Shown: positions 31,159 through 64,000, numbered from the stretch's first letter. The stretch: DNA of 64,000 nt from an uncultured Holophagales bacterium (GCA_963842525.1 CAWJGT010000009.1:1152001-1216000); one strand, 5' to 3'. A program made the numbers and translations. Notes: generated by a model not told the origin, from the letters alone.

Positions 31159-33381
31159 ATGCCTCAGCCACAGCCCCACCTGAAGCCCAACCTTCTGTGT
31201 GTCGTGCCGCCGTACCTCTCCAAGGGAGCCCCTCCCCTGGGTCCTGCGGCGCTGCTGGGCTATCTCAGGTCGCAGGGCTGTCAGGACTTCGACTTCCTGG
31301 ACCTTCGGCTCTGGGTCCCCAGCGCCTATGTCCCGACCTACAGCACGGTCGGGGTCTTCGGGGAGACCTACGTCATCGACGTTCCGGACCTGCCCCTGGT
31401 CCTGCATGTCCTGGAGAATTTCGCCGCCTCGCGGGACCTCACTCCGCCGATGGACGAGCTGTTCGAGCGGTACTGCCTGGAGCGCGGGATCAACCCTCAC
31501 ACCCTCTATGGCTATCTGCTGGCGATAAACCGCTTTCTCGAGTCGTTTTTCTCCCAGGTGGGGCCGATCGACTTCATCGGGTTCACGGTCTGGAACTCCA
31601 ACTACCTGACGACGCTCATGGCCGCGGCCCATCTGAAGCGGCGCCCCAATCCGCCCATGATCGTGCTGGGAGGGCCGCAGGTCACCGAGAGCAAGCCGTC
31701 CGCCAAGCTCGCGTTGCGAGCCGGCCTCGCCGACTTCATCGGCCAAGGCGAGGGCGAGGAGACCCTCCTGCGGCTGTATGAGGCTTTCCGCGAGGAGCGG
31801 GGCATCCCCTCCCGGTCCCTGCCGGGCACGATGCGCTACGACGCCGCGACCGGGCAGTTCGAGACGGCGGAGCGCCCCCTGCTCAGGCTGGCCAACCTTC
31901 CGCTGCCGGCTTTCGACCAGATGAATCTCCCTGCCTACTGGTCCAAGGAGCACAAGCTGCGGACGTTGACCTACGAGCTGTCTCGCGGCTGCACGGACAA
32001 GTGCACCTTCTGCAGCGAGTGGGTGCTCTGGAAGCGGATGCGCCTGGGGAACATGCACCACGTGGCCGACGGCTTCGAGGAGCTTTCCCGCCGCTACAAC
32101 GCCGAGCGGATCTGGTTCATGGACTCTCTCCTGAACGCCAAGCTGGAGCCTCTCAAGGAATTTGCGGAAGAGATCCTGCGCCGCGGCCTCAACGTCAAGT
32201 GGGGAGGGTTCATGCGCGCCTTGATGGATACCGAGACCGCCGCCCTGCTGAAGCGGGCCGGCTGCGATTTCGTGTTCATCGGCGTCGAGTCGCTCGCGGA
32301 CGAGACCCTGCGGTTGATGAACAAGAGGCGGACCGAAGCGGACAACGTCAAGGCCCTGCGGGCGTTCCTGGGCGCGGGGCTGCGGCACGTCGTGGCCGGC
32401 TTCATTCCAGGCTTCCCCGGCGACACCCGGGAGCGCTTCCTCAAGACGGCGCTGGTGCTCAGTGACATCCGGCGGGACTATCCCGATACCTTCCGCGTCA
32501 ACGTCGAGCCATTTGTGATCTCCCCCGGGCAGCCGATCTATTGGCAGCTTGCGGACAGCGGCCTCGCGGCGCACAAGTGGGACGAGCCCTACCTGGACAT
32601 CGCGCCGCGGTTCCGGGACCTGACGGACGACATCGGCTGCCACATCACCGGGCCGAACCAGGGGATCGACCGGCTGGGCGAGTTCCAGATCGCCCGCACG
32701 GTCACCGCCACCAACAAGAGGCACGCCGATCCGTTCCTGTACACCGACGGGGATCCCTGGTCGACAGCGAGCCTTCAGATCGTCGAGATCAGGAAGGGGA
32801 TCTATCTCGGACGTGCGAAGAGCCCCGCGGGCCTTTCACACGGGCTCATCCTTACGGACGAGGAGAAGGAGGAATACGAGGGCTCGACCGAGCTCCTGAC
32901 GCTCAACCTCTCGGACGACGAGGGCAGTACGGAGGCCTTTTTCGACCCTGAGGCGCAGGAGAGCTTCCTGCGGAAGATCGAAGCCCGCCACCTCGTCTAC
33001 CCGAGCCGGACGGAGCCGCGGGTCCAGCGGGGCTTCTATCTGAACAATCTCGGCACCGGCAGCGAGGTGAGCCTGTCCCCGTACACGGCCGCCCGCCCGA
33101 TTTTCCAGGACGGCACGGAGGGCATTCTGGCGGTGAGCGTCGTGACGATGAAGCAGATGTTCATCCCCCTGGAAGCGGGCGCTCTTCTTTCCGCATTGAG
33201 CCTCGGGCCGAGCCAGGTGCAGGACCTCGAGGCGATCGAGCCGCACGCCGGGCTCCTGGAGGAGCTCAAGGAGAACGGGATCCTGACGATCACCAACCCT
33301 GGCGATGATTCCGGTGCCGGATCCGCCGTCCTCGCCGTCGAGGCGAAGGACGCCCTGGCGCCCGACCTGCGCCGGGCCTGA
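31159..33381 (+). CDS. Cobalamin-binding radical SAM enzyme with C-terminal extension
   Basis: PPLGPAALLGYL, IVLGGPQ, GEGEETL (B12-binding domain); SRGCTDKCTFC; IGVES, GFPGDT; GGAGG RBS before ATG at 31159. Confidence 0.9.
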   Translation: MPQPQPHLKPNLLCVVPPYLSKGAPPLGPAALLGYLRSQGCQDFDFLDLRLWVPSAYVPTYSTVGVFGETYVIDVPDLPLVLHVLENFAASRDLTPPMDELFERYCLERGINPHTLYGYLLAINRFLESFFSQVGPIDFIGFTVWNSNYLTTLMAAAHLKRRPNPPMIVLGGPQVTESKPSAKLALRAGLADFIGQGEGEETLLRLYEAFREERGIPSRSLPGTMRYDAATGQFETAERPLLRLANLPLPAFDQMNLPAYWSKEHKLRTLTYELSRGCTDKCTFCSEWVLWKRMRLGNMHHVADGFEELSRRYNAERIWFMDSLLNAKLEPLKEFAEEILRRGLNVKWGGFMRALMDTETAALLKRAGCDFVFIGVESLADETLRLMNKRRTEADNVKALRAFLGAGLRHVVAGFIPGFPGDTRERFLKTALVLSDIRRDYPDTFRVNVEPFVISPGQPIYWQLADSGLAAHKWDEPYLDIAPRFRDLTDDIGCHITGPNQGIDRLGEFQIARTVTATNKRHADPFLYTDGDPWSTASLQIVEIRKGIYLGRAKSPAGLSHGLILTDEEKEEYEGSTELLTLNLSDDEGSTEAFFDPEAQESFLRKIEARHLVYPSRTEPRVQRGFYLNNLGTGSEVSLSPYTAARPIFQDGTEGILAVSVVTMKQMFIPLEAGALLSALSLGPSQVQDLEAIEPHAGLLEELKENGILTITNPGDDSGAGSAVLAVEAKDALAPDLRRA

Positions 33382-33402
33382 GCAACCGTCCCCGAGGTCT
33401 GT

Positions 33403-62700: not shown

Positions 62701-64000
62701 AGAGCCCCAACCCGGCGATCGACTTTGCGGCCGGCCCTTTCTTCGTGCCGAAGGAGGCGACGCCCTGGCCGGCGGGTCCCGGTCCGCGCCGCGCCGGCGT
62801 CAGCTCGTTCGGTATGGGCGGGACCAACGCCCACGCAGTCATCGAAGAGGCGCCTCCGCAACCTCCTCAGCCCTCGCCACGCCCCTGGCAGCTCCTGGTG
62901 CTCTCGGCGCGCAGCGCCGCCGCCCTGGACGCGGCCACGGACCGGCTGGCGCAACACCTCGCGGCGCATCCGGACGTCGATCCGGCCGACGTCGCCTGGA
63001 CGCTCCAGACCGGCCGTAGAGCCTTCGCCCACCGCCGCATCCTGGTGGGCCGCGACGTGCCGGATCTGGCCGCGGCACTGGTCCCCCTCGACGCGGCCCG
63101 TGCGGTGACCGCCGTGGCCACGGAGACGGGGAAGCCCGTGGCGCTTCTGTTCCCCGGCCTGGGAGACGTGCGGCCGGGCATGTTCGGCGACCTCTGGCGC
63201 ACGGAGGCCGGTTTCCGCGCGGAGGTCGAGCGCTGTGTGGCGTTTCTTCCTGATGCGCTCGGGGAGCGCATTCGGGAGCTTTTCGCTGGAGAGGCCAAAC
63301 CAGGGACCGGGCTCGACCTGCGGCGGCTGGTCCGTCCCGGTGCGACGCAGGATGGCGACTGGTGGAGCCGCACCGAGGTGGCGCAGCCGGCGCTCTTCAT
63401 CGCCGAATACGCCCTGGCCCGGCTGTGGATGGATTGGGGCGTACCGGTGGCGGCGCTCCTCGGCTACAGCTTGGGCGAGTACGTGGCCGCCTGCCTGGCC
63501 GGAGTGCTGACCCTGGAGGAGGCGCTCCCCCTGGTGGTTGCGCGGGCGCGGCTTCTCGCCAGCTTGCCGGCCGGCGCCATGCTCGCCGTGCCGCTCTCCG
63601 AGGAGCGCACCCTGGCGCTGCCCGAGGTGGCCACGGGCGTGGTGGCCCTCGCCGCGATCAACGGCCCCGAGGTGTGCGTGCTCTCCGGCGATCCGGAAGC
63701 GATTACCGCCGTGGAGCACCGTCTGGCCGGCGAGGGGGTGCCCTGCCAGCGCCTCGCCGCCACCCAGGCGTTCCATGCGCCAGCCGTGGAAGCCGTCCGC
63801 GAGCCCCTCCTCGACCTGTTCCGCGCGGTGGACTGGAAAGCGCCCCGCATCCCCGTGCTCTCGGGTTTGACCGGCACCTGGCTCACTGCCGCGGAGGCAA
63901 CCAACCCGGAGCACTGGTACACCCAGACCCGCCGGACAGTGCGCCTAGGCGACAGCCTCGGAGAGCTGCTACGCGGTCCGGACTGCGTGTTGCTGGAGGT
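59772..64000 (+). CDS. Hybrid NRPS-PKS 3 (partial): C-T-KS-AT, with no A domain in the first module
   Basis: Not in the ORF track (no stop). GGAGG RBS and GTG at 59772. One frame carries LSLPQQRLWFL, HHLVSDGWS, FFDVGGHSLLL, QTACSTSL, EAHGSGT, KTNIGH, GYSLG, TQAFH. Confidence 0.9.
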   Translation, partial: MPEQTPGDRLAGLSPEQRARLVEALRRERLQKGGSAIPPRPAGHPPLSLPQQRLWFLERLAPGTWTSHVAVAWRLAGPLDVAALARGLNEIESRHEALRTTFHLVDERAVQIVAPPQSLPLPRIDLDGLPSARREEEARRLADREALRVFDLARGPLWRPLVLRLDAHEHVLLLTFHHLVSDGWSIGVLLSELAALYGAFTAGRPSPLPELPIHYGDFAAWQQGRWERGDFEPQLDDWIERLAGCPPVLALPTDRPRPPVQTQRAGLISVSFPADPWQRCEALGRRLGATPFMVCLAAYAAVLGQVSGQDDLAVGSPVGSRQPAETEKLIGLFVNTLVLRVDLKGDPSFAELLRRVRAAVLAAQAHGEVPFEKLVETLRPPRDLAYAPLVQVMLAFEESAGERPALAGLSAETFPLGAAVALFDVTLGLIAMDGGLKGWWDYNADLFDAATIERWAAAWERLLLAAADEPDRRLSDLPFLSAAERRQAADRRPLSALTGASPDAVGAALPPRDDIERSIAAIWCDVLGREKVGIDESFFDVGGHSLLLVRVHARLVEQFPELVMVDLFKHPTVRRLASCLRAEPDAPVALVAKTPPPHAKGSAVAVIGLAGRFPGAGDIEAFWRNLSGGVESISFFTAEELLAEGVSPALVADPGYVRANGVLDGADLFDADFFGIAPREAEVMDPQHRLLLEIAWEALEDAGRDPARADGRVGVFAGISESSYLRVHASGSEAVASVGPFQASIANSEAFAVTRVSYKLDLRGPSLHVQTACSTSLVAVHLACRSLLAGECDVALAGGAGILFPQRIGYRYQERGIASPDGHCRAFDVRAAGTIGGNGGGLVVLKRLADAVADGDRIRAVIRGTAINNDGAGKVGFTAPAVDGQAEVIAAALAAAGAGPETIGLIEAHGSGTPLGDPIEVAALHQVFGVGAGPGSCALGSVKTNIGHLDAAAGAAGLIKAVLAVERGVRPPSLHFESPNPAIDFAAGPFFVPKEATPWPAGPGPRRAGVSSFGMGGTNAHAVIEEAPPQPPQPSPRPWQLLVLSARSAAALDAATDRLAQHLAAHPDVDPADVAWTLQTGRRAFAHRRILVGRDVPDLAAALVPLDAARAVTAVATETGKPVALLFPGLGDVRPGMFGDLWRTEAGFRAEVERCVAFLPDALGERIRELFAGEAKPGTGLDLRRLVRPGATQDGDWWSRTEVAQPALFIAEYALARLWMDWGVPVAALLGYSLGEYVAACLAGVLTLEEALPLVVARARLLASLPAGAMLAVPLSEERTLALPEVATGVVALAAINGPEVCVLSGDPEAITAVEHRLAGEGVPCQRLAATQAFHAPAVEAVREPLLDLFRAVDWKAPRIPVLSGLTGTWLTAAEATNPEHWYTQTRRTVRLGDSLGELLRGPDCVLLE

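Follow-up and report, generated by a model that had tools for sequence, protein, structure and literature searches.

A probable hybrid peptide–polyketide biosynthetic gene cluster with two ureido-type condensation domains in an uncultured Holophagales bacterium

Locus organization and the assembly line

The 64,000-nucleotide stretch of DNA analyzed here (the window throughout this text; G000:C9:1152001-1216000) belongs to the genome of an uncultured Holophagales bacterium, G000 (GCA_963842525.1; 9.95 Mb in 34 contigs, 67.5% GC), and contains what is probably one hybrid nonribosomal peptide synthetase (NRPS)–polyketide synthase (PKS) gene cluster of ~41 kb, uncharacterized and functional in its organism. 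The cluster extends from ~31.2 to 72.6 kb in window coordinates and runs 8.6 kb past the window end; the contig stretch that follows, L001, covers window positions 63001-83000. The original prediction had stopped at 64000, and in the downstream sequence the third synthetase gene goes on to 72603, so that the cluster extends beyond the window. Its genes form three transcription units instead of one, since the methyltransferase gene lies on the minus strand: a radical S-adenosylmethionine (SAM) gene followed by a sulfotransferase gene (plus strand), the methyltransferase gene (minus strand), and a carbamoyltransferase gene, a gene for a 395-amino acid (aa) protein and three synthetase genes (plus strand). 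The carbamoyltransferase gene is separated from the 395-aa gene by 11 nt and the latter from the first NRPS gene by 10 nt, and the stop codon of synthetase gene 1 overlaps the start codon of gene 2 as ATGA. GC content at third codon positions (GC3) is uniform, at 0.85-0.92, over the tailoring and synthetase genes, and the nearest named homologues are from metagenome-assembled genomes of Acidobacteriota.

Long plus-strand open reading frames (ORFs) from 30955 on were scanned with Pfam, which returned exactly the domain order that had been predicted, A-T-C-A-T-C-A-T / C-A(MT)-T-KS-AT-ACP-AMT-C-A(MT)-T / C-T-KS-AT, where A, T and C stand for adenylation, thiolation and condensation domains, MT for methyltransferase, KS, AT and ACP for ketosynthase, acyltransferase and acyl carrier protein, and AMT for aminotransferase. 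NRPS gene 1 (38298..46756, plus strand) encodes A1-T-C(urea type)-A2(Thr)-T-C-A3(Pro)-T. Hybrid gene 2 (46753..59779, plus strand) encodes C-A4(Thr, type II O-methyltransferase insert)-T-KS-AT-ACP-aminotransferase, in which the fused aminotransferase is of class III, followed by C-A5-T, in which A5 carries a PRMT-like methyltransferase insert of ~420 aa. Hybrid gene 3 (59727..72603, ending at L001:9603, plus strand) encodes C-T(no A)-KS-AT-KR-ACP-TE-A6-T-C(urea type)-A7-T-TE, KR and TE being ketoreductase and thioesterase domains; its frame is open from 59718 to 71579 and is followed by one frame change, the terminal T-TE and a stop at 72601. The first AT has the motifs GHSLG and HAFH, the latter of which we take to be a malonyl signature. 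PKS module 1 carries the aminotransferase and PKS module 2 a KR only, and no dehydratase (DH) domain was found in the three synthetase genes (Pfam, E 1e-5). The internal TE (L001:3000-3750, window 66000-66750) has the nucleophile elbow AWSMG, not GxSxG, and ~10 residues separate it from A6, in frame and with no stop or start codon in any frame. No MbtH-like motif is present between 28 and 76 kb, and one occurs elsewhere in the genome.

A ureido link had also been predicted, and whereas domain order alone could not carry that call, a published sequence signature now backs it. According to Yu and van der Donk (2024), C domains that make urea links carry EHHxxHDG, not xHHxxxDG, a motif reported there from no MIBiG C domain of other function; such domains sit in the first extension module, C-A-T, directly behind a loading A-T, they group close to ordinary LCL domains, and mutation of the Glu or the extra His of the signature nearly abolished ureido formation (PMC11212132). 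The first C domain of gene 1 reads EHHLVHDG (40607..40630, plus strand), and the C domain of A6-T-C-A7-T-TE, beyond the window on which the prediction was based, reads EHHIVHDG (L001:5826-5849, plus strand). Both are placed after a chain-starting A-T, one after A1-T, which opens gene 1, and the other after A6-T, which follows the internal TE, and they are the first and the last of the six C domains, the other four of which do not fit the signature (one reads FHHLVSDG). The motif is rare: of 273 C-type His motifs in the genome, counted as matches to HHxxxD[GA]xS in all six frames, just these two, separated by 28 kb within this locus, combine the Glu with the extra His, and EHHxxHDG occurs in 2/120 unrelated long NRPS proteins from our protein search. 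The two domains are also reciprocal best matches in the genome (451 bits against 388 for the next match, and 450 against 417). By their sequence, both are C domains of the ureido-forming type and would be expected to form a urea link from two aminoacyl thioesters and bicarbonate.

Specificity codes were read by hand, anchored on the FDxS, LPxx, GGE-type, NxYGPTE and GKxDR motifs and not on a profile. From the codes DFWNVGMVHK (A2), DVQFIAHVVK (A3), DFWNLGLVHK (A4), DAFTVAAIWK (A6) and DAFHLGCTFK (A7) we take the substrates to be Thr, Pro, Thr, a Phe-like and a Val-like residue, respectively. These codes, and the motif of the A4 insert, fit the Thr, Pro and O-methyl-Thr residues that had been proposed for the backbone. 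Type II interrupted A domains (KtzH, ColG) are described as having a Ser/Thr O-methyltransferase inserted between a8 and a9 with the SAM motif DVGx(N/H)xG (PMC8341866). The A4 insert has the same site, after the A8 motif and before GKLDR, reads DVGANIG and matches Pfam FkbM (E 7e-17), so that by its sequence A4 is an interrupted A domain of type II (KtzH-like).

Type III inserts (ThxA2, DidJ, VatN, LynB3) likewise lie between a8 and a9 and are associated with Tyr O-methylation and a GxGxxA motif (PMC8341866, PMC10127204); for one of them, LynB3-OMT, which presumably acts as a Tyr O-methyltransferase, a similarity of ~30% to arginine methyltransferases has been described (PMC10127204). The A5 insert resembles these in its site, after A8 and before A10, and in its PRMT-like character, with matches to PRMT6 (E 3e-19), CARM1, PRMT1, PRMT3 and PRMT7 (E 3e-19 to 1e-10 for PRMT6, CARM1 and PRMT1), and differs in its SAM motif, GTGRDV where GxGxxA is described. 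Inserts of this kind are widespread: scoring of 8000 candidates gave 556 homologues at E 0.001, which come from Acidobacteriota, Longimicrobiaceae, Nitrospira and cyanobacteria and many of which carry a PF05185 flag. The double-Glu spacing of the insert is presumably like that of arginine methyltransferases, and the A5 code resembles no Tyr code known to us.

The cluster is one orphan among very many in this genome. A tblastn search with six intact domains gave ~255 C, 211 A, 42 KS and 35 AT full-length matches genome-wide, and there are 200 open frames of at least 1500 aa, the largest encoding 10,975 aa (C9:1549473-1582397).

Genes upstream of the synthetases

Directly ahead of gene 1 lie two genes whose association reaches far beyond this locus and represents a lead in its own right. 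The upstream one (35286..37088, plus strand) encodes a 600-aa carbamoyltransferase of the NodU/CmcH/TobZ type, with both Pfam domains above their cut-offs (Carbam_trans_N, E 2e-50; Carbam_trans_C, E 2e-66); alignment with homologues places its true start at the ATG at 35286, giving the family's usual MNVLGINAAYHESSACL N-terminus. Its C-terminal tail ends in YFENLR, an ending of the form F-E/R-x-(x)-R that is shared by 14/19 aligned carbamoyltransferase homologues, and most of the paired carbamoyltransferases have a linker of variable length followed by a conserved C-terminal F-E/R-x-x-R tail.

The downstream gene (37100..38287, plus strand) encodes a 395-aa protein of no named family, for which neither Pfam (up to E = 1) nor NCBIfam (up to 0.01) gave a match. 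All of its 36 homologues are unnamed; the protein collection contains an identical gene call, also of 395 aa, and K104, E142, an LNSNIGND loop and a CDFDTF motif are among the conserved features. The predicted structure (predicted local distance difference test score, pLDDT, 92.5; predicted template modeling score, pTM, 0.91) suggests a protein-kinase-like fold. Foldseek against the Protein Data Bank gave only weak kinase matches (TM ~0.25), and a wider search with VIA-align gave matches that resemble kinases and NRPS-independent siderophore synthetases, at Z 9-12.3. The top match was SbnC (Z 12.3, root mean square deviation 3.9, 269 aligned), followed by WaaP (11.6), AcsD (11.3), MTR kinase (11.2), SelO (6eac, 11.1) and Bud32 (9.0-10.7), with many aminoglycoside kinases at Z 9-10. 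The gene had been called SelO-like in the original prediction: SelO is among the matches of the kinase-like model, but there is no match to the SelO family profile (PF02696), and an Atlas search reached a cluster with SelO-carrying members (35%) first at rank 24. Since SelO is tied with SbnC, WaaP, AcsD, MTR kinase and Bud32, it is not singled out.

The carbamoyltransferase gene and the kinase-like gene constitute a conserved pair across bacterial and archaeal phyla. A carbamoyltransferase homologue adjoins the kinase-like gene in all 13 reference-genome loci (directly upstream in 12, downstream in L017), which come from Acidobacteriota, SAR324, Nitrospirae, Phycisphaerae, Bacteroidales, Methanosarcinales and Nanoarchaeota, and in 15/20 metagenome loci; of the other five, four have the gene at a contig end, and the last is similar to L017 and breaks off short of the position expected. 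The usual neighbors of the pair elsewhere are NMT1-type ATP-binding cassette transporters, a small radical SAM protein or an arginase-family protein, not synthetases. One metagenome contig of 2.7 kb, L018, keeps the order carbamoyltransferase, kinase-like gene and A1 (82, 65 and 71% identity) and is the only other locus with the pair and an A domain in the order seen here. Closer to home, the kinase-like gene is present only in G000 among 41 genomes (5 of the same genus, 19 of the same family and 16 of the same order).

Complex prediction supports binding of the carbamoyltransferase to the kinase-like protein, with a score of 0.72 against 0.00 for the best of three controls. This mark is reached by 116/157 solved complexes and 2/215 mismatched pairs, counts that apply only roughly, since the alignments (19 and 35 rows) were ones that we built ourselves. 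Between runs, at least 87% of contacts agree, partner pLDDT is at least 82, and the predicted contacts involve carbamoyltransferase residues 387-392, 562 and 581-600, the last being the tail beyond the Pfam C domain, and partner residues including E192, N253 and G255 of the conserved loop. The arrangement is analogous to Kae1-Bud32 of KEOPS, in that the neighbor of the carbamoyltransferase is kinase-like and Bud32 is among its structural matches, but differs in that contact is predicted via the C-terminal tail and nearby loops, not via the Kae1-like N domain. Some memory effect in the complex model is conceivable, because Kae1-Bud32 complexes have been solved; the predicted interface, however, avoids the Kae1-like domain. 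In a rather doubtful reading, the conserved F-E/R-x-x-R tail of the transferase would dock at the active-site cleft of an ATP enzyme, kinase-like or similar to the NRPS-independent siderophore synthetases. We know of no such partner described for known carbamoyltransferases.

Upstream of the pair lie three further tailoring genes. Their presence ahead of the assembly line agrees with what had been predicted, except that the methyltransferase lies on the minus strand. The radical SAM gene (31159..33381, plus strand), with a GGAGG just ahead of its ATG at 31159, encodes a 740-aa protein with a Radical_SAM domain (Pfam, E 2e-19) and a CxxxCxxC motif at residue 278. Its B12-binding domain scores 24.0 bits against a Pfam cut-off of 32.1, and its best NCBIfam matches are B12-radical SAM methyltransferase families, partial and all far below their cut-offs; the protein is a putative B12-dependent methyltransferase. 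No close relative of this gene was found in 401 genomes of the phylum, where just two distant matches (32-33% identity) occur. The sulfotransferase (33403..34320, plus strand; Sulfotransfer_1, E 6e-38, Pfam) contains a PKSGTT sequence that we take to be the loop binding 3′-phosphoadenosine 5′-phosphosulfate. The class I SAM methyltransferase (34330..35091, minus strand; Methyltransf_25, E 2e-20, Pfam) is convergent with the sulfotransferase gene and divergent from the carbamoyltransferase gene, and a plus-strand ORF over the same DNA is without a Pfam family.

Proposed product and comparison with known systems

The domain order would be compatible with the following biosynthesis. A1 would load an amino acid and A2 a Thr, and the first C domain would link both alpha-amines by a carbonyl, so that the carboxylate of residue 1 stays free and the chain changes direction. 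Ureido chemistry has reportedly been shown for SylC and SnaA. Pro would be added next by A3, followed by a Thr that would be O-methylated by the embedded KtzH-type methyltransferase. The KS-AT-ACP module would then add malonate, and the fused class III aminotransferase would turn the beta-keto group into an amine, giving a 3,4-diamino acid unit with a free beta-amine. A5 would add a residue methylated on its side chain by the PRMT-like, type III-like insert, family precedent pointing to Tyr O-methylation, and the C-T module lacking its own A domain would add a residue loaded by another A domain. After addition of a beta-hydroxy ketide by KS-AT-KR-ACP, the first TE would release the chain, possibly by lactamization onto the beta-amine as in iturins. 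The remaining A6-T-C(urea type)-A7-T-TE would make a second ureido dipeptide, which could be a product of its own or become joined to the first.

The carbamoyltransferase and its kinase-like partner, encoded in the same operon directly ahead of the NRPS, would probably carbamoylate the product; the pair may have been recruited here to modify it at the free carboxylate left by chain reversal or at the amine formed by transamination. The radical SAM protein, sulfotransferase and methyltransferase may add C-methyl, sulfate and methyl groups. Taken as a whole, a bis-ureido, doubly chain-reversed product built around a 3,4-diamino acid, together with the pair as an undescribed two-protein machine ranging from Acidobacteriota to archaea, is a rather doubtful proposal.

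Peptides with ureido links form a small class in which protease and proteasome inhibitors are frequent, and the sequence signature by which such peptides can be predicted is recent. Such activity for the present product would be an analogy, not evidence. The ureido-forming synthetases named in the signature paper are those of syringolin (SylC), threopeptin (SnaA), anabaenopeptin, bulbiferamide, pseudovibriamide and chitinimide (PMC11212132). Like the lines of SylC and SnaA, the locus has a loading A-T followed by a C-A-T with EHHxxHDG, from which a head-to-head urea and a reversed chain would be expected, and as for syringolin and threopeptin the chain would pass on to a PKS module. In contrast to known ureido lines, the locus combines two ureido units, the second of which follows an internal TE; the Pfam scans showed no LanB-like PEARL enzyme, and the downstream modules are without a counterpart that we could find. 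The absence of a DH domain also means that no vinylogous or enone warhead is predicted.

Syrbactin (syringolin/glidobactin) clusters have a PKS module with DH and KR that gives the alpha,beta-unsaturated amide in a 12-membered lactam. A syrbactin-type cluster was considered here and rejected, since Pfam detects no DH domain. PKS-aminotransferase modules that form beta-amino groups are known from iturin/mycosubtilin (MycA) and microcystin (McyE), and share with gene 2 the succession of KS-AT-ACP, a fused class III aminotransferase and a C domain. Here, however, the module would extend peptidyl-O-methyl-Thr instead of a fatty acyl or polyketide chain, and the expected product is for that reason a vicinal 3,4-diamino unit.

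The designation of the cluster as uncharacterized has held up, in that the kinase-like gene was found only in G000 within its order-level sample, the radical SAM gene is without a close relative in the phylum genomes, and the literature gave no match. Literature searches on Acidobacteria long-read clusters and on the ureido signature yielded no matching cluster, and the genomes and literature searched contained no relative with the same domain order. The first C domain, compared with longer proteins, matched multi-domain synthetases at no more than 53% identity, none of them a named or close relative. To our knowledge, no scaffold class of bis-ureido peptide-polyketides around a 3,4-diamino acid has been described. 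The locus is distinguished by its two ureido signatures, a predicted diamine unit, an internal TE and an apparently recruited carbamoyltransferase pair; two ureido modules, an aminotransferase predicted to give a vicinal diamine and an internal TE make it a concrete target for synthesis-guided or heterologous discovery, from an uncultured, cluster-rich lineage that is apparently Acidobacteriota by its nearest named homologues.

Frame breaks, alternative explanations and flanking genes

Frame breaks in the synthetase genes were placed by searching the cluster by tblastn with 196 long ORFs taken from other parts of the genome, since a GC3 frame plot was too noisy for the purpose. This search located breaks at ~39411, 39748, 42406, 43091, 44904, 51918, 52075, 55806 and 71354, and two further breaks were found inside A2, at ~42515 and 42595, with A4 as query. 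All 11 are single-base changes, nine +1 and two -1, and are distributed as seven in gene 1, three in gene 2 (51918, 52075 and 55806) and one in gene 3 (71354); frame changes at 46753 and 59727 are true gene boundaries. The TGA at 52078 was considered as an in-frame stop between KS and AT and rejected, since the C-terminus of the KS lies in another frame for 157 nt, which implies two compensating breaks and no in-frame stop. No homology-supported segment holds a stop codon, and each lies in an open frame. The A3, A5, A7, A8 and A10 motifs, carrier serines, C-domain His, KS Cys/His/His, AT serine and KR Tyr are intact where inspected, which covered most modules; the search patterns were not matched by two motifs, the A7 motif in the A5 domain and the serine motif in the ACP of PKS module 1.

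Beyond the cluster, NRPS/PKS domains genome-wide show 67 frame breaks between adjacent high-scoring segment pairs, 58 of which are +1. Single-base assembly errors do not seem to be confined to synthetase genes: the first 67 profile positions of rpoB (G000:C9:670320-674532) lie in another frame than the rest, and one uvrA copy (G000:C3:1070969-1073734) leaves and re-enters its frame through two breaks, whereas the other copy is unbroken, as are rpoC, both dnaE-family matches and carB. Given the shared insertion bias and the break in rpoB, consensus errors of the assembly are the likelier explanation, and the 11 frame breaks are, on this sequence comparison, most likely insertion errors of that kind. 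Frame breaks in genomes assembled from long-read metagenomes thus need not mean dead clusters.

It could also be that the breaks are real, in which case the cluster, or gene 1 at any rate, would be decaying into pseudogenes and would make no product. The distribution of the breaks is uneven: there are 11 over 34 kb, of which a stretch of 5.5 kb in gene 1 accounts for seven and 11.6 kb of gene 3 for none, and the rate of one per 3 kb exceeds the rough genome-wide figure of ~1 per 10 kb in synthetase domains. Many other synthetase ORFs of the same assembly are unbroken for 12-33 kb, up to 10,975 aa, which leaves room for real decay of gene 1, and the unbroken rpoC, carB and dnaE-family genes point the same way. 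However, the freedom of homology-supported segments from stop codons, the intact catalytic motifs over most modules, the exclusively single-base shifts with their common +1 bias, and the breaks in the essential rpoB (one) and in one uvrA copy (two) all speak against decay, which we regard as quite improbable. Slightly less improbable, though still very unlikely, is that the EHHxxHDG domains make ordinary peptide bonds and that the product, a plain peptide-polyketide of linear or cyclic form, contains neither lipid nor urea links. The signature derives from one paper with a limited set of characterized clusters, in which ureido C domains sit close to ordinary LCL domains (PMC11212132), which weighs against reading the two domains as ureido-forming. 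Against the peptide-bond explanation, the same paper reports the motif from no MIBiG C domain of other function and mutants of the Glu or extra His as nearly inactive (PMC11212132), and here the motif is rare (2/273), with both copies following a loading A-T as the described rule requires.

Another possibility, somewhat unlikely and yet the most serious of these, is that the locus comprises several independent units, in which the radical SAM, sulfotransferase and methyltransferase genes serve another role and the terminal A-T-C-A-T-TE is a separate ureido-dipeptide synthetase that only seems to be fused to gene 3. Cluster membership of those three genes is based on adjacency only; the methyltransferase gene is on the opposite strand from the rest, the radical SAM and sulfotransferase genes form a unit of their own, and no homologue of the three was found near any relative of the carbamoyltransferase pair. 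A TE that lies within a gene, here gene 3, with an A-T of the initiation type directly behind it is unusual and, in an assembly prone to single-base insertions, could reflect an error at a gene boundary. Nevertheless, all these genes are tightly packed between unrelated flanks and have the same GC3, the junction between TE and A6 is in frame and free of stops with no alternative frame showing a gene end, and the genome's only two ureido-type C domains both lie in this locus. Further points also weigh against one functional cluster with the product proposed. The second AT (window ~63300-64000 and L001) has GYSLG and QAFH, not GHSxG and HAFH/YASH, and may use an unusual extender unit or be impaired. 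Codes DLESTGAITK (A1) and DVEGVAGVTK (A5) match no nameable residue, and the residue names taken for the other five come from hand-read codes. Finally, the carbamoyltransferase pair stands outside NRPS contexts in all other loci with readable neighbors save L018. On balance, we still favor a single functional hybrid cluster.

The cluster is bordered on both sides by other genes. Downstream of 72603, Pfam scans of L001 detect a BrnA-domain ORF, MiaB-like, RibF, M24 peptidase and DUF5996, which by these matches are housekeeping genes. Upstream of 30955 lie a FadL-like gene, SPOR and MORN proteins, VgrG/ClpV/PAAR genes and a TIR-SIR2/STAND-WD40 locus, all unrelated to the cluster. The last of these, at 2258-7294, consists of a TIR and SIR2-like ORF overlapping a STAND NTPase with WD40 repeats, which continues in another frame; it looks like a defense-type locus, with a likely frame break near 6314-6381. 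The PAAR, VgrG and ClpV-like AAA+ genes at 13647-19018 form a type VI secretion-like set, equally unrelated to the cluster, in which the ClpV-like AAA+ gene is split over two frames near 14914-15011. At 23977-26705, a PD-(D/E)XK nuclease-like ORF lies between two 178-aa ORFs that share an NAD(P)H-binding domain at their N-terminus, and this stretch, which is of lower GC content (57-59%), may be a duplication or an insertion.

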